Assembly (NCBI RefSeq): GCF_038025025.1 | Contig: NW_027117344.1 | Span: forward strand, 1,922,001 to 1,986,000 | Length of the DNA stretch: 64,000 nucleotides | Reading direction: 5' to 3' | DNA from: Phyllosticta citribraziliensis | Lineage: Eukaryota | Part shown: positions 16,999-51,608 of the stretch, in pieces | Layout of the letters: the number at the start of each line of letters is the position of its first letter | Position numbering within the stretch: the first letter of the stretch is position 1 | The notes under the pieces: generated by a model | The model's database searches: none | Seen by the model: only the letters and a program-made list of their open reading frames with translations | What the model was told of the DNA's origin: nothing | Translations under genes and position numbers: made by a program

Positions 16999-19004
16999 AT
17001 GCAGCATTTTTATGCTCTTGGCTTGCTTTTATCCCTCGTCGCTGCTTCATCCCCTGGCTTGGGCGCGAACAGCGACGCTTTCAAACTCTTCCAGCGCGCC
17101 GAAAGATACAACAAGCCCGTACCTCTTGAAGATGTCCAGGCACCAGCGCAGGTGGACCGCCTTCAAAAGCGACAGTCGCGGTTTCGAACAACCGCTTCAG
17201 AAAGTATGTCTGCTGTTCGCGTCGGATTTTGGCCAAACTGACGAACCCTCCCACAGAATTCGTAGTTGATGGGACTGCTATCCCAGAAGTGCCTTTTGAC
17301 GTTGGAGAATCATACGCTGGATTACTTCCCATATCCGATGATCCAAACGAGACCCGGAAGCTTTTCTTCTGGTACGTGCCTTTTCCGACATCAGCGAAGA
17401 CCGAGGCCGCTGATCAGAACGGGCAGGTTCTTTCCCTCGACAAATCCCGACGCTGGGGCCGACGTCACTGCCTGGTTTAACGGAGGTCCTGGATGCAGTT
17501 CCCTCCTTGGTCTATTAAGAGAGAATGGTCCGTTCACATGGCAAGATGGAACATTTGCGCCGACGCAGAACCCTTACAGCTGGGTGAATCTGACGAATAT
17601 GGTGTGGATCGAGTGAGTCCAAATCGATAGTCAAGCTTGCTTCAGATCCACTGACTGGTGATTCAGACAGCCAGTCGGCGTTGGCTACACGCAAGGCAAG
17701 CCAAATATCACGGACGAGCTAGGCGTAGGTGACCAGTTGGCTGGATTTTGGAAAAACTTTGTCGACACCTTCGATTTGAGGGGCTTCAAGGTCTACCTGA
17801 CTGGAGAGTCGTATGCCGGCTTCTACGTGCCCTACATCGGTATGTTTTTTTCCAAAGAAAAGAGAGGAAAAGGGACAATTTGCTGATCTTGGGTAGCGGA
17901 CGACTTTATAAGTCGTAACGACAAAGATTACTACAACCTGGCCGGAATAGCCATCAATGATCCGATCATCGGAAGCAGCACTGCTCAACAGGCTGGTAAG
18001 TTGGCTCCTCTCTCCTGGGGGAAAATTTGTTCGGTCCCTCTTGAAGCTGACTCGTACCCAGTCCCTGCCGTCCCGTTCGTAAACTATTGGCAGGAGCTTT
18101 TCTATCTCAATGGCTCTACCATGGAAAAGATCAATGCGGATGCCGACCGATGCGGCTTTACCAACTTGTTCGACAAATTCCTCGCTTTCCCTCCACCAGA
18201 CGAGGACTTTCCTGATATCTTCGACCCCGCTGAACAGAAGAACAACTCCTGTGACGTTTTCAGTGCGATTATCGAAGCCGCAAAGGAGGTGAATCCTTGC
18301 TTTGACATCTACCACATCACCACGACCTGTCCTAGTAAGCTATGCCAGGGAGACAACTTTCAGATGTTGGACTGACGACCATTTCTAATACAGCCCCTTA
18401 TTCGATTCTCGGAAAAGTCAACAGAGACGATTACCAACCACCAGGGCTCCAAATCTACTTCAACCGCACCGATGTGCAGCGTGCCATCAATGCCCCCGTG
18501 GGCACCAATTGGACGCAATGCTCGCAGAAACCCGTCTTCGCCGGCAACGGCAGTGACTTGACGCAAAGCCCTGCGCAAGACGGCACGCTCCGTCGCGTCA
18601 TAGAAGCAACGAACAATACCATCATCGGCAGCGGCAACCTCGATTTCATCCTCCCGACCAACGGCACCCTTCTCGCCATTCAAAATACGACCTGGAACGG
18701 CAGACGCGGCTTCCAAGAATACCCTGGCCGGGTCTTCTACTCGCCGTACCATCCAGAGTATAACAAGGGCTGGCTGGCGGGCAGCGGCGAGGTGGGTTTC
18801 TGGGGCCAAGAGAGAGGCTTGACGTTCTACCAAGTGCAATTGGCAGGTCATGAGCTACCTGGCTACGCAGGCGGTGCCGCCTACCGCGTAATTGAGTATA
18901 TGCTGGGTCGGGTCAAGGCTTTGGATGAGCAGTCCAACTTTTCGACGCAGCCAAACGCAAACTTCACCGGACAAAAGGGACCCGGGAAGAGGAATGAGCT
19001 GTGA
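16999..19004 (+). CDS. Secreted serine carboxypeptidase (peptidase S10), multi-exon
   Basis: Signal peptide, [18 protein letters not shown] nucleophile motif, AGHELP His motif. Confidence 0.92.
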
Positions 19005-40071: not shown

Positions 40072-41225
40072 ATGTCCGACAATCGGTTCTCCTCCTCTCG
40101 GCCACCCGGCCACTACTGTGAGTGCCTGCGTTGGAGGCTTGTCTTGAACCCCAATGTACTAACTGGAACTCCAGACGACAACCGCGCAACGCAAGATCGC
40201 CGGTCTCCACGCCACAGATCGCAAAGTGAGTCTGACTCTTGAATGCTCCCACTTACGGTTCCGTTGACTGACAGCGCTGTCTTCAGGATCTCGGTCGCCC
40301 GCATCTCGCGAATCGCAATACACTTCGCAACGGCGAGGTAAAAGAAGCGCGAAGTGTTTCCCTCCCGAATTTCCGCTGACATCAAGCTCCAGAACGTTCG
40401 CCTCATTCTCGACGACAAAGGAGTAAGTCATAGATCAAGCCTTTGTCTCTGAATACGGGAACTGACCTGAATGCTCCAGCGCCTTCGCAACACGCGCACT
40501 CTTCGCGACGCACACACTCTTCGCAACGCGCGCGCTCTCCGCAACGCGCACACTCTTCGCAACTCGCACACTCTTCGCAACGTAAGTTTCCCATTTGAGT
40601 CATTCCGTCCAAGATAAGGTCATTGACATGTGCTGTAGAGTCTACAGCGGCGCAATTGACTGCAGCCAAAGCTGAAGTCAAGGACTTGAAAAGGGAGATA
40701 GAATTCCTGAAACTCCAACATCAAATGGAGGTGCAACAGCTGAAGCATGAAAAGGAAATGCTACAGCTGCAACATTATAAGGAAGCGCGAGAGCCGAAGC
40801 AAAAGCTCGAGCAATCCACGCGGCAGCGCACGCAGCCCCCGGAAAGACTCCTTGATTCCACCGCGCAACACCCGGTGCCCAAACGGGAAAGCCCGGAGCC
40901 CTCGCCGCAAAACTACCCGCTACCTCCGCAGCAAAAGTCTGCCTCCGAAAGACCGCGGGAAGCGCAAACAGCGGAAGAGAAGAAAGACCCGCGCATCGCA
41001 AACCCATGGGTGTACGATGAGCGGCACCATTCAATTATCAGATGTTGTTTCCACTACAACGTGTATGGCAACTGTCAGGTGCCGGGGAACTGTCATCTCC
41101 TGCACGCAATTCCTGAAAAAGAGTTGGAGCGATGTGAAAATCAGCAATGGGTGACGGAATACCGGGGCAAATATCGCATCCAGCGGGAATGGGGCCTGGC
41201 CAAAGGCAACCAGCGAAGGCAATGA
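40072..41225 (+). CDS. G2: micro-exon gene, RS/SP-rich domain plus coiled coil plus CCCH zinc finger
   Basis: Exons 40072-40117, 40175-40225, 40287-40337, 40393-40422, 40480-40581, 40639-41225; 5 of 5 introns phase 1. Encodes RRSPRHRSQRSRSPASRESQ and canonical C-x8-C-x5-C-x3-H (CFHYNVYGNCQVPGNCHLLH). Confidence 0.85.
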
Positions 41226-42219
41226 ATAGGGAGGGAGGGTCTTTAGGTCGATTGCCAGGGGAAGTTTGCAAGGAAACGATCGCAAAAGATCGCAATCAAC
41301 ACGTCGCAAACATTGCGCAATAATCTACGCCTTCTCTTGTCAATTGACACATATGTTCTGTGAAACTGCTTCTCCGCCGTAATTTTGAAGGTTATAAAAC
41401 ATAAAATAAGCCTCGAATGCTCCAAATGTACGCCCTCACGGGTATCCAAAGTTTCCCCAATGCTTCAAATCCGAGAGACTTGAATGTGGTCTGATAGTCA
41501 ACGTGTAGTCTCCTTGTACCTACAAGGCTCGCACACTGGAAGTCGACAGGTATGGCTACACTTGAGGGGAGACTTTCTGCAGTGAGTGGTCAAGGAGAGG
41601 ATGGAATTGTTCTGTGTGCAGCACAGCAGTCCCAAAGTCTACTGTGTGTGTTCGCGACAAGACGCGTAGAAAGAGGGAGAATCTCACACAGCCAAAAGGG
41701 CGCAGGTTTGCCTGTTTAAACAAAGGCTGGTGGGAACGTTTCAACGATAGGCTGACTTGGAGAAAGGGAACAAGACGAGGAACGAATGGAAGCTTGAGGC
41801 TCCACGCGGAAGTACACCAGGGACGTTCAAATGCGTTGTTTGTGAGAAGGCAGACAAGCAGCCTTCATCGGCGCCCCAGATCTTTCTACAAGTCGATGCC
41901 TTGTTGCGGCAATCCCTTGCAATGACTGTCGCTGAAACTATCTTGAATCTTTGGCTGATCACAAAGCAGACACAGCAAACAGGACCTTCACAAACGATGG
42001 AACTTCTTCGCCGTTGAATGCTGACCTTTTGCTGTCGCTGTAGCTTGCTTTTTCCCCGTTGCTCCCTGTCTTTCTATCTCTGCCTACTCCATTGTTCAAC
42101 TCTTGCCGTCTCCAACCGTATCACAAAGCTCCTCACTCTTCCCCGGATTCGACTGCTCCTGGTGCTCTTTTCTCCTTCATTGGAACCTTCCGCCCGTTCC
42201 TTCCCAAAACAATACCTCC

Positions 42220-44241
42220 TCAACGAGACTGGTCCGAACGATTCAGAACATCCAGTGCTTTTCCTACCACGTTCTCGAACTCGGACAATTGTCGATTTTT
42301 CGCGTCCCAAATCTCTCTCAAGTGCTCTTCATGCTCAACTCTTTCCTGCGCCAACACACATTCCGCTTCGAACAGAAGGTGCTCAGCATCGTCCCGCTGT
42401 TCGTTGGACCTCAGGAGGTCGGCTTCAGCTCGGTCGGCACGGTCTTGCTGTATCCTCAGCTGGGCACAGACATAGAGATAATCCTCCCTCTTGATGTGGT
42501 CTCCACCTGCTCCATTGTCGACGTCTTGAGCTTGGATGCCGTTGTCCTGGTTCTCGCCCGCATTACCCGCCCTTTGTTCTTGCGAACTAGGCCCCTGGAA
42601 CTCGGCCGCTCGGTCGCTAGGGAAGTATTCTGAAAGTTCCACTGTGCGCCGACCATACTCTGGCGAAGAGCTAGAACCCGCCCATCCGCGGCGGCCTGTG
42701 TGAATGTCGTAAAATTTGGCGGGAATCTTGGAGCAAGGGCGATGGAAATGCTCGCGTTTGTCGCACCACTGACAGGTATCTGAGCACTGTGTCCAGTGTC
42801 CGTGGATTTGTGATCCGCAACGGAGGCATATGCCTTTCCAGGTAAATCTGTCGAGAAAACAGTCAGTCCAGAAGACATTGAGATATTTCCGTCCTGGGAG
42901 TTACTCACGTTCCATCAAGGTCCGATTGGGAGATAACGCGGCCACCTTAAAGTTCTCAAGTGTCAGTAGAACCAATCGTCGAAACACATCCGTCCGGGAA
43001 CCTCAGGCGAAACACGTGCCTGGAGGATTTGTTTGCGGCTCCAAGGCCTGCTCCTGTTGTAGATCCTCTTGCTGCTGCCTCGGATCCACCACCACCAGCT
43101 GGCCGTCTTGAGATGTCGGTCTGGGAACGCTTCCCAAGAGCGTCTGAAACGACTGCGCGTTCGTCTGCTCATCCGTCTGCGCACCATTCTCTTGCGGCTC
43201 GTCGGGATTGGGTCAAGAAGCCGAAGCCGGGGCTACAAGGAAACATCAGCAGACTGGCCACGACGATGAGGATTAATATCAGCTTTGTACCTTGTCCTTT
43301 CTGGCCATGGGAATGCTGTGCCTGAAGGTCTACGCAATTTAGTGTCATTACGCAGTAATATCCGAGAAACCCTTTGCCCGTATCGGCTCTTTCGTATCGC
43401 AAAGGCCTCGCAAAAACGGGTATCGGAGGGTGACATACATTGAGGTGCGTAGTGTGGTGTTGTTGCTGGAGCACCATATCAGCTGTTGTATTTCCAAGGG
43501 AGGTATGATTGGACGACTTACAATGGGGCGGAAATTGGCATGACGCTGTCTCTGAAGCTGAATTGTCAGCCAACGAAGACTTGTTCGAGGGACTACGTAC
43601 GCTGCGGTGGTGCATGCTGAGGCGCATGATGAGGCGCATGCTGAGGTGCATACTGAGGTGCATACTGAGGCGCATACGGAGGCGCATACGGAGGCGCATA
43701 CTGAGGCGCATGCTCTGAAATACCAGATGTCAACCGAAAGGTTCTCCATAGGGACAAGATCGCGGAAGGGCATACGTGGTTGTGCAAACGGCTGCGTCAA
43801 CTGAGGAGTAAACTCTGGAGCATCGTGAGTCGAGACAACCCCAAAGACACATATTTGAGGGATAACCAACGCTGCTGCCACTGGGCCGGTGGTGGTGCTA
43901 GATTCCGGTGTCAGCATGTGGAGATTCCCAGGCAAATTCCACTGCCCTTTCGTTCCTTGCGGTTGCTGCTGCAGAGGCGGCGGCAGCGGCTGCGGGGGCG
44001 GCGCTGGAGACATAGGCGTCAACTCTCAAAGGCAGCGGGAGGATATTGAGACGCTCTGGGATTCCTTACCTTGCTGAGGGTAGCCTTGAGGCTGGTAGCC
44101 TTGAGGCTGGTAGCCTTGAGGCTGGTAGCCTTGCAGCTGCTGGTTGTCTTTTGTTGTTCAGTGAGATTCGAAGCAGAAATAGAGCAGTGTGCACTCACGG
44201 CCGTGTTGGCCATTGGGCCAGGAAGACTGATTCGGCCACAT
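42220..44241 (-). pseudogene. G3: micro-exon gene, Q/Y/P low-complexity domain plus double zinc knuckle plus coiled coil; two lesions (pseudogene or rescued by exon skipping)
   Basis: Exons 44241-44199, 44147-44070, 44003-43956, 43897-43871, 43814-43776, 43714-43601, 43557(or 43545)-43522, 43465-43439, 43329-43291, 43232-43020, 42945-42909, 42847-42220. Encodes CLRCGSQIHGHWTQC-x3-CQWCDKREHFHRPC. Lesions: GA donor at 43955 and in-frame TGA at 43215-43213. Confidence 0.7.
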
Positions 44242-44570
44242 GTCTTGACACAATGGAGTCAGTACAGAGCGGATGGGGCAGTTTTTTCTCGAGCTTACCG
44301 TTTAAATTTCGCTCTCGAAAGGTGTGTACGGTAGGGTAGCGGAGTGGTGCGCGCAGGCGAGGCGACCTGAATGGGCACCTTCCTCGCACCGCCTGCGGAC
44401 GCGGTGCCGGATTAATTCGCCCACTGGCTCCGGCTGCGTTGTCATTATTCGCGGCTCTTCCGCTCCAGATCCTCTTCCAAACACCAACACCACTGCGAGC
44501 GTTGACAAAAGTAATTGTCACCCGGGGCAGAACTCCACCGTTGATCTTGTGCTGATCCCTTCATGCGAAG

Positions 44571-46099
44571 ATGTCGAACGCTCCGAACCCTTACGCCTGG
44601 CCTCAGGGCCACCCAAACCGCCGTCAGTAAATCTTGCAGCGCGCTTGAGCCTCTCTGACAGAAACAGCTCCTCAAGAATACGGCTACGCGCCGCAACAAG
44701 GTGAGCTCGCGAGGGAATTGCTGCTTATGACTTCATCGACTAACAGCATCATCTCCAGGGCCGCCTCCGCCGGCTCCTCAACCACAATGTCGGTCACGTT
44801 TTTGTTGGCTTTTTGCGAACTTTTGGACTCACAATGCTCAATTCAGACAACGATTTTCAAAATTGGGCTCCACCCCGTAAGTTAACTTCCGAGTCTGGTC
44901 TGAGGTGGTCCTTGTCGACTAACAGAAGGGACTGTAGGACAATGGACACCAGGTCCACCTCAAAACTGGCAATACCACCAGCGTTGGTCATCTCTTGGGG
45001 GCCCAAGGTTTCTTCCAGCTAACACAAAAGAAGCCCAACAAAACTATCAAGGGTCTGCCCGTTCGTCGCTCCCCCAAGCCCTTTTCTGGCAAATTGATTC
45101 ACTGACACTGGATGCAAAGGACCTCAAGTAGGAGCGCCGCCTCCTTCAAATTACTGGTCACAAGGTATGGTGTTCCCAGACATTGTCAAAAAACTCTTTG
45201 GAGGTCGTTGAACATTTGAGAAGGGTACAACTATGGGCCAGAACCTCCACGTATGTCGTACCTTGGTGTCTTGTTTCCTATTTGAAGTCCTTTGCTGACA
45301 TGACGTCGTCCAGGGCTGGCCCCGCCTGAAAGTATGTTCAATTTTCATTGTTGCATCAATATTCTCGTAGTATACTGACAGGAATTAGATATCAACAACT
45401 CCTACGGGGTTGAAAATGAATGGCGGATGGCTCCTCCAGCGGCAGCAATATTGCCCGTAAATCGTAACTTGCTTATCAACTCCCGCTTTCTCACGATCCC
45501 GTCCGCTGATTGAGAACCCACAGAAAACAGTCAAGCAACTCATAACAATCAAGGTACTTACTCCTCAGATTCGTGCAGCCTTTTACTGATATTAGCTTGT
45601 GTAGATGATCGAACATGTAAGAAGTTGACTTTGAGAAGCATCTCCACGCCTCGTTACTGACCTAACATGTAGCTCGGACTACCGCCCCTCCGCCGGTTGC
45701 CCAAGAATCACCGGAAACAAAGGAGAGATATGGTAAGTTTACCGTGAGTCGCCCCTGGGTCTCCTAGGCCCGAGCTGACGTTGCACAACAGAACTCTATC
45801 GAGATTTATTCAAAATGGCAATCGAAATGATCGAAACCCTCCAAAGACAAAACAGCGAATGTCGACAAGAAAAGGAACAACTTCAACATAAATTAATTGA
45901 AGAGCGTAGACTCCATCGTCTAACGGAAGAAGCGAGTTTCGAAGCCATCAGAATTGCCACCAGAAACGCCACCAGTAACGCCACCAAATCCAAGAAGCAA
46001 TACCGCAATCTGCGAGAATTGTATTACAAGCCGTTTGAAATGCCCAACGAGTCACAAAATGATTCAAGGATTGGGCGGATCAGAAGCAAAACACTCTAA
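44571..46099 (+). CDS. G4: 14-exon micro-exon gene, P/Q/Y/G-rich low-complexity domain plus coiled coil (3' end uncertain)
   Basis: Exons 44571-44622, 44668-44700, 44747-44788, 44847-44876, 44938-44982, 45034-45060, 45120-45164, 45224-45250, 45314-45331, 45389-45463, 45524-45553, 45605-45616, 45673-45732, 45792-46099. All 13 introns are GT-AG and phase 1, with no in-frame stop. Confidence 0.8.
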
Positions 46100-46494
46100 A
46101 GAACACTGGAATAAACAGTAAGTAAGCCTGCAAGCGCTTTACCATTGATATTTGGCTGACCAAAGAGGCAGAAAAACATGATCAAACATAACGACCAACT
46201 TCAATCAAAATTTGGTCCAAAATCACCCTCAAAAGCTCGCTTAAACCTCCCAAACCGCGCCCGAAAAGCTCGCCTCAAAACGCTTTTAACAACCAGGCTC
46301 AACAAACCATCCAAACCCCGGCCCAACAGGTCCTTCAAAACCCGGCTTCAAACGCCACTCCAAACTGCGGCGATATCGCCCAAAGCATGGCTCTGGGGAA
46401 TGGCAGAATCGCCACAAAGGCCACGGGTCTTGGAACCAGCATGTCTGCTGCTTGGTTCCCCGCGCTGGGCGCTTCGCTGGGCGATTATTTTGGT

Positions 46495-46612
46495 ACGCAA
46501 GGCGTATCTGCGCAAGGCGCTTTGGATGCGCGTGGCGTATCTACGCAAGGCGTATCTGCGCAAGGCGCTTTTGATGCGCGTGGCGTATCTATGCAGGGCG
46601 CATCTGGGCCTT
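46495..46612. repeat. Tandem repeat (about 2.5 x 48 bp, built from 15-18-bp subunits)
   Basis: caaggcgtatctgcgcaaggcgctttggatgcgcgtggcgtatctacg is repeated; reads QGVSAQGALDARGVST on the + strand. Confidence 0.85.
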
Positions 46613-47201
46613 CGCGCGGCGTTAAGATCGTCATGAAATCCAAAAATTTTGCTGCACGAAACTACCTGAAAAGTCAAGCAGGCAAAATTGAAACAAGGCC
46701 CTCAAATTTCGAGGCCGCACTCAAATCGGGCTAGTACGTTCAAAAGGCGGAGAATCATGGGTCGGATCGGGCAAAGAAATACGCAAACCAAACGAATGAA
46801 AGCAGGCATAAACATTCCGCCTTGTTGGTTTCGGAATCAAAACTTTCACAATGAACCTTGGGCGGGTCCAAAACTGTCCACACAAACATCAAATCACCGA
46901 AGGAGACCTTGTTGGGTTGCAATGGGGGAAGAGAAAAAGGGCAACAATAAGACACAAACATGAAGCAATGAAAAACCTCGTTCTCGTACAATTTGCCCTA
47001 CGTTTACTGACTGTGATCGACATGAGATAACAATGCCTCGTCTCCCCAGACTTCTCTCGCAAAACTGAAAACTTCAATCGAGCAGTTCTCATGAAGGAAC
47101 CGGAACAAGGAAAGAAGAGAGAGCGGTCAAGGTCGCTTGCGGCATGAAAGGTTGGATCATGGGAATCCCATGAACGCTCCTTAAAGACAACCGGCAGCGC
47201 T

Positions 47202-50200
47202 TCAGAAGTCAAACTTGACGTGCTGCTCCTCGACCTCTTCGAAGATGTTGGCCCACTTGCGCTCCTTGGGCGGCGTCTTCCTCAGCCTCTGAATTTCATT
47301 CAAGAACTTGTCGACGACCTCCTTTCTTTCGCGGGCGAGCTGTCGGCGACTTTCGGCGTCTGGGAGTAGCTCTGCGAGGCCTTCGTAGTCGTGGCCGCAG
47401 GTGTCCATGTAAGCGTCAAGGTATATTTCGAGTCGAAAGGGGCGTATGGGATCCACTGGGTCCGGTAGGTACCGCAAGGGAATATATGTACATGTATGGG
47501 AATAGGTTTCGTGGGGTGTCGGAATCCACAAAGGGATTGATTCCTGAAGCGCATTAGGTTCAAATACAACGATGTTTGGGAGCAACACCAGACGAAGTCA
47601 ACGGGCGGCGAGACATACCGAAATGATGACAATATTCTTTTCCTCCTGCTTTCGGTAAGCTCAAATTTCAAATTGGGCTGGGAACAAAATACCTTGAGTC
47701 TTTGAAGCCTCGATGAGGAATCCGAGAACCAGCCTTGCGCAGGTTTGATTACGGATTTCGCAACGTCCTCCCTTGCAAGTGCTCTTTGGGCAAGAATCTG
47801 GATCCAAGTATCTTTTTGATGGTTTTCGACGCACTGGGAAAACTCGACGCACTTCCATTCCAACTGAACGGCAAGTTCGTGCTCCTCCTCTTCTACCTCT
47901 TTCATGTCTCTCTCCACATCGGCGAGGTCTGGCTGTTGTGCTGAACACCGGTTCCGCAGTTCTGCGACGCTCAAGCTCGAGCCTGGAGATTTAGTGCGTT
48001 CGATATCTGCAAAGTTATCGCCACAACATGTGTGCGTCATTTCAAGCGCCTCAAAAGCGGATAGTCGATAGATGACCTTCGCTAGTTCGTGCTCATCAAT
48101 CGCACATCCCAACTGTCTCAAGAGCAGAAAAAGCTCAATGTGCCACGGCAACGCATGAAATTCTTCCGCATACGAGTGACAGCCTCTGATTCGATGGCCA
48201 CGATAGCCACCCGAAAGGTCTTCGATGGGTATGTTGTTGTAAAGGAAACGTCGGAAGATGGAGCATCCGTCAGGACAACAGTGGCAGGTACAAGCATCGG
48301 CTTGAGACATCTCTGCGCCCATGTGTAACAGCAAGGCGGCTTTTAAGATCGACTTTCTTGCGATTATGGGGTTCGTGAACGTCGGATTCAGCCTCCCTCT
48401 CATGACGACTGAACCGTTGAGCAAGTCCAAAAGATGATGTATAGCCGTCTTTCCACACTTATCAGGTATTCCAAGAGATGCACCTTTCGAAACTGCTTTC
48501 CGAATCGCCTGAAGCATCGTTGAAGCGTCTGTATCCATGGCTGTGGCCAGTGACATTGTCATGGTCCATCCAAAGTCGTCCTGATGATTGATCGAATACT
48601 CGCTAGCGTCCAGGAGGATCGAGGCCTCCTCAGGTAGCATTATTCGGTGGAGCAGTGTTCTTCCGTGGTTGCAAATCTGCCCCATATCGGCCCCAATATC
48701 TACCAGGTACCGGAGCATGTTCAACTCATTCTCGTGTGGAGTACGAGTTCTGAATCTGAAGTCCATTCTGAGACAGTCTCTGGCGGAACGATTGATTACA
48801 TCTCTCAGCTTTTCATAAGAGACTCGCGGGGTACACCACTCCAGAAGTTGAGCGAAAGATTCAGTGCTTCCGCTCATGGCTGCGTAGGTCCAGGAATCAA
48901 AATTTTGATCTTCGAGTCTTCGATCATGGTATGGCGATCTGTGTGTTCGAAAAGGGTCCGCTCCATGATGAAGGAGGGATCGTACAGAGGTTGCCTGCCC
49001 ATACGCTGCCGCATACATCAGTGGTGTGATCCCGAAGAAGTCTTCGATATCTACTCTGGTAATGTTGACGATTGAATGCTCCAAGATCTCAGGATGCAGG
49101 ACAGCCAAGTGAATCACAGAGTGGCCCCATACATCGGTTTGCCGCAATGAAATCTCTTCCAAGTCATCTGCTGGTAGGATTGCCGTGTCAAGCTTTCCAC
49201 TTATTACAGCGCAATGCAACGGCGGAAGACAACCGGAGACTGCTTAGAATGAGTGCTTGGACACAATGAGGCGTTGGTGCTGAAGAAGGAAATTCATGCA
49301 GGGAGCTTACCACTCTCGTACTCAAGTATGCTTGTGATAGTGTCCAGATAGAAAGGATCCCACGGTTCCTGGTCACCCTGTGACTTAAGATTAAGCCAGT
49401 TTCCAACGAGGCTCTTTGATGCAGCGCTGAGCTGTCCGACTTCAATGTCCAAAGATGGTGCATGTCGTAGAAAAATTTTCAATTTCGACCTCGAATGTTT
49501 GGAAGCGGCGCGGGCCATTAAGTCATTCAGTACGTCGATTGGTCTAGAGATTGATTCGTGAACGAAGTTTCATATGTTATGGAGATAACTCACCTGGGTG
49601 TTTTCCAGCTGACTCCTTGTTTTACAAGTAGAAGCGAGAGCTGGATTGCGTAATCTTGGGCTTCTTCGCTGGGTTCATGGGTAAACCCATCCAATGCAGC
49701 CTACTGATGTCAATCGATAGACTAGAATGGTTTAGGAAGTAATCACCTCGAGGTATCCGCCATGGATGCCTAACCCCAAAATTAAGGTGTTGTCATCCAG
49801 GTCAATATGGCCTGAACTACAAAGTCGCATGAGATCCGATCGTGTTGAGTCAAAAGATGGATACGGATCTCCCATAGATGGGAACATTCGACACAGGACC
49901 ATGCCTGGGCTTCCCTCTGTCACAAAGCGTTGGTACTTCAATGAAATGCCAACATTCAGGCTTTTGTACCATGACAACATGATGTTGAATCTCAGCAGCC
50001 TTTGTAGAGCCGAGATATCAAGAGAAATGTCGGCCTGGGTGCAGCGGCACTGCAAAACATGCAAAGACGGAGCAGCGAAGCCTAGTAACCGAAGTCGAGT
50101 CGTTTCGTTGTGGCAAGGACAACCGCAGGTTCCCAGCGCACACAGTGGTTGTCGAGAGGATTTACGAGGAGTGGGAGAAGAAGGGAATTCGTTGATGGCG

Positions 50201-50724
50201 AATTGTTTAGCTGAAGTCAAAGACGGCGTTGGTTGGTGAACGTTGGATGTAGCTCTTTCCAGGGAAGACAGAACTTGCAGTATGTCCTGTTGATTTTTCC
50301 ATGTTGCCCGCGCCAGATGAAGTGTCACGATGCGCTGGTAGATGGCCAGCTCGTCCAGGATTTCTTTCAGTTTCCTATCTTTTGCAAGCGAGCGAACGGC
50401 ATTTGCCACCCGCTTGAAGCTGCTTGAGTCGGGATTAGGAATCTGTGCTTCGATAAGGGTTTCCAATTCTTGAATCCTCTTCCTGCAACCTTTGAGCAGG
50501 TCGATAACATCGGCTTCCAGGTCTGGGTCCAGCGCGGCAAGTGCTCTTGGATCCTGAAGAGCTTCGACGTCTTTGGAGAAAAGGCGAATCTGTGACGCGA
50601 GCTCCAGGAAGGCACTGTGCCCACGATATTGTCTGATGCGAACAAGGACTTTGTGACAAGCATCCGAAAGTTGGATTATCGAAGCACCAATACCGATAAC
50701 AGCGATGAATTCGGCGCCCGACAT
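47202..50724 (-). CDS. Ankyrin-repeat protein with a fungal STAND N-terminal (SesA/HeLo-like) helical domain, multi-exon
   Basis: MSGAEFIAVIGIGASIIQL-type N-terminus; ankyrin motifs GITPLMYAAAYG, GRTLLH, GKTAIHHL; Cys motifs CTCHCCPDGC and THTCC; no P-loop seen. Confidence 0.8.
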
Positions 50725-51608
50725 GGTAAGACAAGGTCGCTGGACATGTGCGAGGTAGACTGGAGACAGGCGGGACACGAAGTTATTGAAATTTTCTGAG
50801 AACCTTTGAACTTCAAAAGCTGATCAGGCTGTGCTGACAGCTCAACAGTGGGGCAAAATGGCTAGGCAGCACCGGGCTTAGGCATGAGCAGTAAGCGAAG
50901 GTGCAGAGAACATTCATTGGACAGGATTGAAGCTTTTCAGAAGAGTCAAACCGGCCAATACATTCAAGGAAGAGGACCGAGGTCAGTGTCGGCCAATCCG
51001 TCAGCGAAGGATACATGCAGGCGGCGTCGAATGCTCCTGTTGCGATTCGAATGTGTATTGCTCGAAAAGCATGAATGCTCCCTGACTGCTGACAGTGAAA
51101 AGGCAAGGGTAGCCAATCGTGATGGTTCGGATTGAGTACAAATGTCGGCGAAGGAGAAATGTTGTGTAGTGGATGCCAGGTAACGCGTCGACGGGTTGAG
51201 GTCGTCCTGATTTCGGCGAACGCAGGCACCAGCCACCCGATTACCCCGGATTTTCATCGGACGTTGCACAGCCACGTGAATATAGAGTGGCTTAGCACCC
51301 AACCAAGAACGACGCGAACGCGTCAGGCACGACCTGACTGGACTGGAACACCAAAATCATGACGTACCTGTCCATGCGCTGCACGTCGAGCGTCTACAAG
51401 CCATCACTGGCTTCTGCTTGATCGCATGGCCATCGCCCGGACTGCGGCCCATGTCAGAGGTTCCACAGAGTCAGGCGTTCTCCTGTGCCTCAATTCTATT
51501 TCCAGCTTCAAACTTCTTTCCACCAGGTTTTCTTCAATCAACGTCCGTCAACCGTGTCTTTCATTTTCTTGGACGTCATCTCCTCCACTTTCAATACCAG
51601 CTTGCGAC

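Follow-up and report, generated by a model that had tools for sequence, protein, structure and literature searches.

How does a gene come to carry an unbroken series of introns that all fall in the same phase of the reading frame? The question is raised by a locus that we call G4, on the forward strand of a 64,000-nucleotide (nt) stretch of the genome of Phyllosticta citribraziliensis (contig NW_027117344.1, positions 1,922,001 to 1,986,000; hereafter the window). An earlier note on this DNA had described thirteen consecutive phase-1 introns at G4, had read the exons between them as consistent with serial exon duplication, and had calculated up to 2^12 in-frame splice combinations. The explanation that we consider probable as a whole is that G4 is a real protein-coding gene of P. 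citribraziliensis and a divergent member of a local family that includes the genes G2, G3, and Gx, and that its intron array is a family trait that would go back to old duplication or exchange of exon-plus-intron units. As part of the same explanation, the G4 introns confirmed by RNA are spliced constitutively in the runs examined. The same-phase pattern probably reflects the assembly of the family and not a device for producing thousands of variants.

The model of G4, rebuilt by coordinates, consists of a single open frame on the + strand, from the ATG at 44571 to the TAA at 46097-46099, which needs the removal of 13 GT-AG introns and yields a product of 263 amino acids (aa) from 14 coding exons. 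Five codons 5' of the ATG there is an in-frame stop, and in the spliced RNA neither of the other two frames is open, both being full of stops. All 13 introns, 45-63 nt in length, are in phase 1, i.e., they follow the first base of a codon, and the lengths of all 12 internal exons (12-75 nt) are divisible by three (3n). The claim of thirteen consecutive phase-1 introns was therefore borne out in so far as the model keeps one frame, with introns 8-13 demonstrated by RNA and introns 1-7 modelled. The window has the look of a filamentous ascomycete, with a G+C content of ~53% and introns of 45-65 nt with CTRAC branch sites. Within G4, the branch motif [CT]T[AG]A[CT] is found 7-22 nt from the acceptor in 11 of the 13 introns, and introns 3 and 7 have looser forms only (CTCAC and TTGAA, respectively).

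In the modelled 5' half, exon 1 (52 nt, 44571-44622) begins at the ATG, ends in phase 1, and matches a profile of the heads of the related genes described below. It is followed by exon 2 (33 nt, 44668-44700), whose donor is the sole one under strict signals, defined here as G at donor position +5, a branch motif, and an intron of 44-66 nt; exon 3 (30 nt, 44759-44788), with a junction like that of intron 2 and exon 3 in G3 (89% of 19 nt, E = 0.03); exon 4 (30 nt, 44847-44876); exon 5 (45 nt, 44938-44982), with a donor region like G3's (85% of 20 nt); exon 6 (27 nt, 45034-45060); and exon 7 (45 nt, 45120-45164), whose donor is like the exon 5/intron 5 junction of Gx (83% of 23 nt, E = 0.04). The intervening introns 1-7 (44623-44667, 44701-44758, 44789-44846, 44877-44937, 44983-45033, 45061-45119, and 45165-45223), all with GT..AG ends and in phase 1, are modelled sites. 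The same applies to a putative leader intron in the 5' untranslated region (5'UTR; 44511-44570, GTAATT...AG), which ends directly at the ATG and aligns with the leader introns of G2, G3, and Gx.

Eleven of the twelve internal exon lengths listed in the earlier note proved correct; the remaining one, exon 3, measures 30 nt and not 42. The longer form uses the AG at 44745-46, which lies 2-3 nt past the branch A of a CTAAC motif, and we preferred the AG at 44757-58; both acceptors are in frame. Two alternative acceptor pairs had also been proposed. The pair 45030/45033 is a plausible tandem, judged by AG only, which would allow exon 6 to start at 45031; the AG at 44925, proposed as an alternative to 44937, is unlikely to be usable because it lies 3 nt past the branch A.

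Three public runs cover part of the window. Two of them, X1 and X2, stem from organism A and gave intron-less contigs, and the third, X3, stems from organism B and gave unspliced DNA. Runs X1 and X2 are not labelled as RNA. Their contigs have depths of 2709 (run of 95 million letters) and ~21 (run of 25 million letters), much more than fungal genomic DNA would give in runs of this size, and from this we infer that they come from RNA.

The X1 contig reproduces exactly the junctions of introns 8, 9, 10, 11, 12, and 13 (45251-45313, 45332-45388, 45464-45523, 45554-45604, 45617-45672, and 45733-45791, all in phase 1), with exons 9 and 12 included. It spans 45221-45251, and with it exon 8 (27 nt, 45224-45250), which is joined to exon 9, a micro-exon of 18 nt (45314-45331) whose letters lie inside the joint 45251>45389. 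The contig then passes through exon 10 (75 nt, 45389-45463), omits 60 nt with GT..AG ends at the joint 45463>45524, and continues with exon 11 (30 nt, 45524-45553), the 12-nt micro-exon 12 (45605-45616), and exon 13 (60 nt, 45673-45732); the 12 letters of the micro-exon are found inside the joint 45553>45673 in both X1 and X2. A further joint omits 59 nt with GT..AG ends and leads to the last exon (45792-46117; X1 and X2), which comprises 308 coding nt for a predicted coiled coil up to the TAA and then 18 nt of 3' untranslated region (3'UTR). Eighteen nt 3' of the stop codon follows a 3'UTR intron of 54 nt (46118-46171, GT..AG; X1 joint 46117>46172). Exons 11, 13, and 14 are present in both contigs, and X2 repeats the exon 11/12/13/14 junctions (introns 11-13). 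The first 5 nt of the X2 contig belong to intron 10, an overhang too short for interpretation.

Hence, 6 of the 13 coding introns, five internal exons, both micro-exons (18 and 12 nt), and the 3'UTR intron are confirmed by RNA. The earlier note had made its reading depend on whether RNA would support the junctions: it does so exactly for introns 8-13, and the only form seen in the contigs is the constitutive one. Exons 8-14 appear in the contigs of two runs in their fully included form only, contigs being of a kind that drops rare variants. No spliced contig of X1 or X2 was found over 44571-45220, i.e., introns 1-7 and the leader intron, or over G2, G3, or Gx, a gap that carries no information on expression. 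The X1 contig stops at the exon 7/8 border, and introns 1-7 therefore remain modelled sites.

Two local features of the array were seen in addition. The 12-nt exon together with the start of its donor (45606-45619) resembles the 3' end of the following intron (45658-45671; 86% of 14 nt), which would fit the birth of a micro-exon from a copied intron end and is short enough for chance. Moreover, a 20-nt inverted repeat, 90% complementary, links 45114-45133, comprising the intron 6 acceptor and the first bases of exon 7, to 45276-45295, a stretch of intron 8 just 5' of the branch site. Pairing of its arms might place exons 7-8 in a loop of the pre-mRNA, unless the repeat is a product of chance. 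A search of 42000-48000 against Rfam, with E up to 1, gave no match, i.e., the introns host no known small RNAs.

The same-phase pattern of G4 exceeds chance expectation. With strict signals, the densest intron-like chain of the window is G4 itself, with 11 non-overlapping sites in 1.3 kb, compared with 7 (on the opposite strand, over G3) and 6 in the next densest chains and with maximum chains of 4-7 in 40 dinucleotide shuffles. For introns 1-7, the same signals return exactly the seven modelled donors, with 12 paths that differ by in-frame acceptors or by retention of intron 5. Phase 1 accounts for ~32% of the introns in Fusarium core genes (172/534; PMC5677156; here and below, cited papers are drawn on in excerpt). 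At this Fusarium rate, 13 independent phase-1 introns have a probability of ~4e-7, and the six confirmed by RNA one of ~1e-3. Regardless of frame, the five RNA-confirmed internal exons are all 3n, for which P = (1/3)^5 = 0.004. An unverified control gene near 17200-18400 showed gaps of 106, 175, 173, 99, and 273 nt between intron-like sites, mixed modulo 3.

G4 has relatives in the window. Scanning for P/Q/aromatic-rich frames revealed two further clusters on the minus strand (44133-43667 and 24449-23998), and a reading of these two loci and of a fourth gave the genes G2, G3, and Gx, which are hand models without RNA support. G2 (40072-41225, + strand) has exons of 46, 51, 51, 30, 102, and 587 nt, and all 5 of its introns are in phase 1. 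The 288-aa product starts with an arm rich in R/S/H/Q, encoded by four 3n exons, and goes on with a coiled coil and a CCCH-like finger. A Pfam search with G2 was without a significant match (best E = 0.37). Gx (24546-23001, - strand) has exons of 43, 141, 27, 288, 30, 39, 51, 60, and 323 nt, with 8/8 introns in phase 1, and its product of 333 aa carries QYAPP repeats and then a CCCH-like finger; the 288-nt exon holds ~20 tandem repeats of a Gln-Tyr-Ala-Pro type.

G3 (44241-42220, - strand) lies head-to-head with G4 and has 12 exons (43, 78, 48, 27, 39, 114, 36, 27, 39, 171, 37, and 628 nt) for 428 aa, which comprise an arm rich in Q/Y/A/P, a pair of CCHC knuckles, and a coiled coil. Phase 1 applies to ten of its 11 introns, the exception being the last, a phase-2 intron. 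The model includes non-canonical donors, GA at 43955 and GC at 43019, and dropping the 48-nt exon with the GA donor keeps the frame. The public collection contains a hypothetical protein of P. citribraziliensis that is 99% identical to the G3 open reading frame. A near-identity search with the zinc-knuckle reading frame returned only the gene's own public model, and a further word search returned nothing. This public model, P0002 (369 aa), starts at the ATG at 44213, uses another frame in the arm, and splices out the CCHC knuckles; it shares the junctions of five exons with the hand model, and its internal exons (78, 114, 30, 27, 39, and 213 nt) are all 3n. Across the four genes, the hand models place 36 of the 37 coding introns in phase 1.

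What the four genes have in common is their 5' head. The heads of G2, G3, and Gx are homologous (z 11-24, with z = 23.8 for Gx versus G3), and the first exon and first intron of Gx are close to those of G3. An nhmmer profile built from these three heads, which takes in the 3' portion of the leader intron, the ATG, the first exon, and the first donor, matched G4 at 44523-44624 with E = 1.7e-4, and the next match in the 128 kb of both strands of the window had E = 1.6. The first exons measure 52 nt in G4, 46 nt in G2, and 43 nt in G3 and Gx; in all four genes the first coding intron is in phase 1 and is followed by 3n exons. This one head is combined with different C-terminal modules, and in all genes but G3, i.e., in G2, Gx, and G4, the module begins at a phase-1 intron. 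The C-terminal regions of G2 and Gx are homologous to each other (E = 2e-08), with fingers that are 41% identical over 68 aa.

Further likeness within the family is concentrated at splice junctions. Where G4 is most similar to G3 and Gx, the matching segment runs across an exon-intron junction, in most cases a donor, and each match is marginal (E = 0.03-1.1). The donor matches comprise the last 4-8 bases of an exon and the first 13-18 bases of the intron (44976-44995, 45160-45182, and 45243-45265), and an acceptor match covers the acceptor of G4 intron 2 and the start of exon 3. The comparison of G4 with Gx gave five matches, and 100 shuffles gave 0.9 on average and 6 at most. Junctions of three types are found repeatedly in G3, G4, and Gx, namely Gln-Gln followed by G|GT, Pro-Pro followed by C|GT, and Pro-Gln followed by T|GT, the last with a tyrosine codon completed after the intron. 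In addition, the motif AP[PQ], which forms tandem repeats in G3 and Gx, is enriched in G4. Because of the junction matches and the common 5' head, the comparison suggests that the array is older than G4.

We propose the following route to such an array. In the models, the family members start with a common 5' head, in which a leader intron ending at the ATG precedes a first exon of 43-52 nt and a phase-1 first coding intron; a low-complexity arm made of short 3n exons comes next, and then a C-terminal module. With phase 1 fixed by the head, a gain, copying, loss, or exchange of units keeps the frame only if the units are 3n. The family fits this rule, with arms that vary in length and composition and with C-terminal modules of different kinds. 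Old copying or swapping of 3n exon-plus-intron units among family members, with later drift of their sequences, may have given rise to the array, and G4 is the extreme case with 12 such units.

The product of G4 shows the same two-part layout. Its arm (exons 1-13) comprises 161 residues, among them 35 P, 20 Q, 17 N, 15 A, 12 Y, and 6 W, and contains no hydrophobic stretch. The first 30 residues are rich in P/Q/N/G/Y, likewise with no hydrophobic stretch, and no signal peptide was recognized by inspection. The repeat-like peptides quoted in the earlier note are present in the translation, and the arm is indeed internally repetitive: AP[PQ] occurs seven times compared with 1.1 expected, a number that none of 20,000 composition shuffles reached. 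For the last exon, AlphaFold2 without an alignment predicted a single helix over residues 2-78 (mean predicted local distance difference test (pLDDT) score 82.7), which begins at residue 2 of the exon, directly after intron 13. A two-copy model of this exon scored 0.65 compared with 0.00 for the best control and showed parallel, in-register chains with heptad-spaced contacts; three runs agreed in at least 66% of contacts, with a partner pLDDT of at least 74. The mark applied to two-copy models was reached by 21 of 30 proteins solved as one-chain pairs and by 0 of 23 solved as single chains, but by only 1 of 7 eukaryotic cases without an older solved relative, and coiled coils may score high through memorization by the model. 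The product of the last exon is therefore predicted to form a parallel dimeric coiled coil.

Searches with the last exon gave little to compare it with. Pfam returned only the sub-threshold families YabA and CENPU (18.4 and 16.4 bits versus cut-offs of 30 and 27.8), and a word search for relatives returned none. Using phmmer against 1.84 billion representatives, we obtained one protein, a repetitive coiled-coil protein of 1259 aa that was matched in 21 stretches and was judged non-specific. In a language-model atlas, recognition reached 1609, short of the mark of 2300, and the clusters returned were all bacterial or coiled-coil ones without a name. The G4 last exon occurs in no protein of the public sets searched, the search having been made with that exon and not with the spliced protein. 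Given that the public protein of G3 is in the collection and none holds the last exon of G4, this suggests that G4 is missing from public annotation, a public model with other exons being conceivable.

No zinc-binding Cys/His pattern, neither a CCCH-like finger nor CCHC knuckles, is present in the 263-aa product. Together, the composition and the structural models point to a disordered P/Q/N/aromatic-rich arm carried on a parallel dimeric coiled coil, with no zinc finger. The zinc-finger relatives of G4 are probably RNA-binding or nucleic-acid-binding proteins, and G4 would most likely act as a multivalent scaffold or partner in their assemblies: a dimeric scaffold with two sticky low-complexity arms, derived from a zinc-finger family, with its own finger absent.

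The unspliced DNA of organism B allowed us to compare the 5' half with a relative. Over 44571-45323, it differs from the window at 12 positions in 299 nt of exon and at 13 positions in 454 nt of intron, with seven of the substitutions in exon 6; among the codon changes, 6 are non-synonymous and 3 are synonymous. The donor hexamers and acceptor triplets of introns 1-8 are unchanged, and the sole indel is a 1-nt insertion inside intron 6. By our own reading of the 30 letters shown, exon 9 measures 33 nt in organism B compared with 18 nt here, which is still 3n, and is followed by GTACGT. By this comparison, the peptide can vary, with frame, phase, and splice sites being preserved. At 44554, within the putative leader intron, organism B has A for G, which turns CTGAT into CTAAT and maintains the branch consensus. 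The DNA contigs of organism B depart from the window at 45323 and match again only from 46186; the 3' half of G4 there appears to be either replaced or more than 10% diverged.

Several observations weigh against our explanation of G4 as a family member with an old array. Regarding the gene itself, introns 1-7 and the leader intron are without RNA cover in the runs examined, permissive signals give more than 1000 frame-keeping paths for the 5' half, some with 4 introns only, and contigs cannot exclude minor isoforms. Regarding the family, G2, G3, and Gx are hand-built, and G3 needs both a GA and a GC donor and conflicts in frame with P0002. The pairwise likeness of the G4 head to the family is weak (z ~2.1, P ~0.04 for each pair), no relationship links its C-terminal exon to the corresponding exons of G3 and G2 (E = 1.5 and 2.7), and the arm of G4 compared with that of G3 gives P = 0.11 over the whole length and P = 0.011 for the N-terminal part alone. 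Regarding duplication, there is no DNA similarity among G4's own units to support it, and the placement of seven AP[PQ] motifs in seven different exons has P = 0.096 by chance. Regarding the product, the searches yielded no informative relative and only sub-threshold Pfam families, which leaves the function of G4 wholly inferred; moreover, divergence from organism B is no lower in exons than in introns, which together with the 6 non-synonymous changes indicates that constraint on the G4 peptide is weak.

A tentative extension of our explanation, to which we give limited credence, is that this ascomycete family is built like the metazoan class 1-1 mosaic genes, with a conserved head that fixes phase 1 and with low-complexity 3n micro-exon units and C-terminal modules (CCCH finger, CCHC knuckles, coiled coils) copied and exchanged among members through recombination in the minimal introns, and that donor-side junctions rather than peptides are what selection preserves. 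G4 resembles the class 1-1 symmetric modules of metazoan exon shuffling (Patthy; PMC8001218) in that every unit is 3n and flanked by phase-1 introns, that its C-terminal module begins exactly at a phase-1 intron, and that one head is joined to different C-terminal modules in different genes. The metazoan modules differ in being folded extracellular domains of animals, whereas G4 is an ascomycete gene with low-complexity exons of 12-75 nt; its introns are minimal (45-63 nt), and the exchange of units between genes is a candidate process only.

Serial tandem duplication of one exon-plus-intron unit inside G4, recent enough to leave a trace, appears unlikely. Such an origin would agree with the occurrence of AP[PQ] once in each of seven exons and with the similar lengths of units 2-8 (86-104 nt), and duplication of introns within the same gene is known from fungi (Collemare, van der Burgt and de Wit 2013, PMC3609843). 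According to the portion of that work used here, duplicated introns occupy equivalent positions in a repetitive coding region, as they would in G4, and half of the reported cases are segmental, with flanking exon sequence. Those duplications are, however, defined by near-identical introns, and the introns of G4 are not alike: their mean local score is 6.67 compared with 6.94 +/- 0.46 for unrelated intron-like sites of the window, and 71% of the control sets score at least as high. Tandem Repeats Finder found nothing inside G4, and the best self-matches, which lie across an acceptor and the start of the next exon, are 18 nt long with 83% identity and E ~1. Furthermore, several junctions are closer to junctions of G3 or Gx than to any other in G4, which argues for older units. 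All three tests, i.e., Tandem Repeats Finder, self-matches, and intron likeness, thus leave the serial exon duplication put forward in the earlier note without support. As no trace of recent duplication is found inside G4, any copying would be old or would have taken place between paralogues.

The introns might instead have been gained singly, by insertion or intronization, with phase 1 resulting from the biased codons of a P/Q/G-rich sequence, which we regard as quite unlikely. Phase-1 insertion at AG|G splits glycine codons, and composition biases phase, as stated in the excerpt of PMC8001218; consistent with this, introns 2 and 7 of G4 lie at CAAG|GG and intron 11 at CAAG|AT. Yet, only 2 of the 13 split codons encode Gly and the remainder are spread over 9 different residues. 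Biased insertion at AG|G explains at most two or three introns (CAAG|G). Site preference alone would yield neither 13/13 nor 36/37 phase-1 introns across arms that differ in composition, such as the R/S/H-rich arm of G2.

It is improbable, in our judgement, that the 5' half of the model is partly wrong and the true phase-1 run shorter. The gap in the RNA contigs over 44571-45220 and the many permissive paths described above would allow for it, as would the absence of a CTRAY branch motif from introns 3 and 7, and the public model of the neighbouring G3 shows that such loci are misread. Against this, the seven donors are unique under strict signals and the alternatives are in-frame acceptors, the RNA-proven introns (51-63 nt) are like the modelled ones, and organism B keeps all modelled splice sites, with its 1-nt insertion placed in intron 6. 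Finally, programmed combinatorial splicing of symmetric exons, as in schistosome micro-exon genes, is very improbable: any skip among the 12 3n internal exons would stay in frame, introns 5 and 11, alone among the G4 introns, could be retained in frame without a stop, and the end of the X1 contig at the exon 7/8 border could mark a branch point of the assembly graph, but the 2^12 combinations are arithmetic only, exons 8-14 were fully included in both runs (rare forms could escape contigs), skipped exons make up 3% of fungal alternative-splicing events versus 61% for intron retention and intron definition prevails in fungi (PMC3925392, in excerpt), and G4 has minimal introns and, by inspection, no signal peptide.

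Comparison with two further systems places our explanation, an old family array of 3n units, among known same-phase architectures. Symmetric exons of disordered regions in human proteins (Schad et al. 2013, PMC3632108) resemble the disordered, motif-bearing arm of G4, and in the text drawn on here they often originate from internal tandem duplication; G4 differs in being fungal, on a far smaller scale, and without a DNA trace of tandem duplication. The micro-exon genes (MEGs) of Schistosoma (10.1101/2023.06.21.545858, PMC10399815), as far as the excerpts describe them, share with G4 short symmetric exons (3-81 bp) and lineage-restricted disordered products that are poorly handled by automatic annotation. 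MEGs have introns of up to 5 kb, secreted proteins, and documented splice isoforms, whereas G4 has introns of 45-63 nt, no signal peptide by inspection, and one form in the contigs.

Downstream of G4, the X1 contig continues for more than 2.5 kb past the 3'UTR intron (from 46172), towards a convergent ankyrin-repeat gene. The segment 46172-46734 (+ strand) contains a 48-nt tandem repeat at 46494-46606 (2.4 copies) and a stop-free frame of 180 codons. The extension may represent a 3'UTR of unusual length, another reading frame, or the overlap of two transcripts. On the opposite strand, 47300-50823 contains a large open reading frame with ankyrin repeats. Upstream of it, another frame encodes a SesA domain, the N-terminal domain of NACHT-type NTPases, and the region has the appearance of a fungal NLR-like locus that is convergent with G4.

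Our literature searches for a fungal micro-exon or phase-1 gene family found no paper describing one, in coverage that left out subscription journals. New here are the RNA proof of exons of 12 and 18 nt and a phase-1 rule that runs through a family with exchangeable parts. Given that the last exon of G4 is held by no public protein searched and that P0002 reads G3 in another frame and leaves out the zinc knuckles, intron-dense fungal micro-exon genes appear to be missed or misread in annotation. The 12- and 18-nt exons, set between introns of 51-63 nt, offer a test case for how micro-exons are recognized under intron definition. With 36 of 37 introns in one phase, the four neighbouring genes represent a compact fungal system for the origin of same-phase arrays, for which unit duplication, exchange between paralogues, and biased insertion are candidate routes. 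The excerpt of PMC8001218 asks why exon shuffling is restricted to Metazoa, and the family bears on whether it is confined to animals: if the tentative shuffling reading were true, these genes would show exon shuffling at work beyond the animals, and G4 would be its most extreme outcome.

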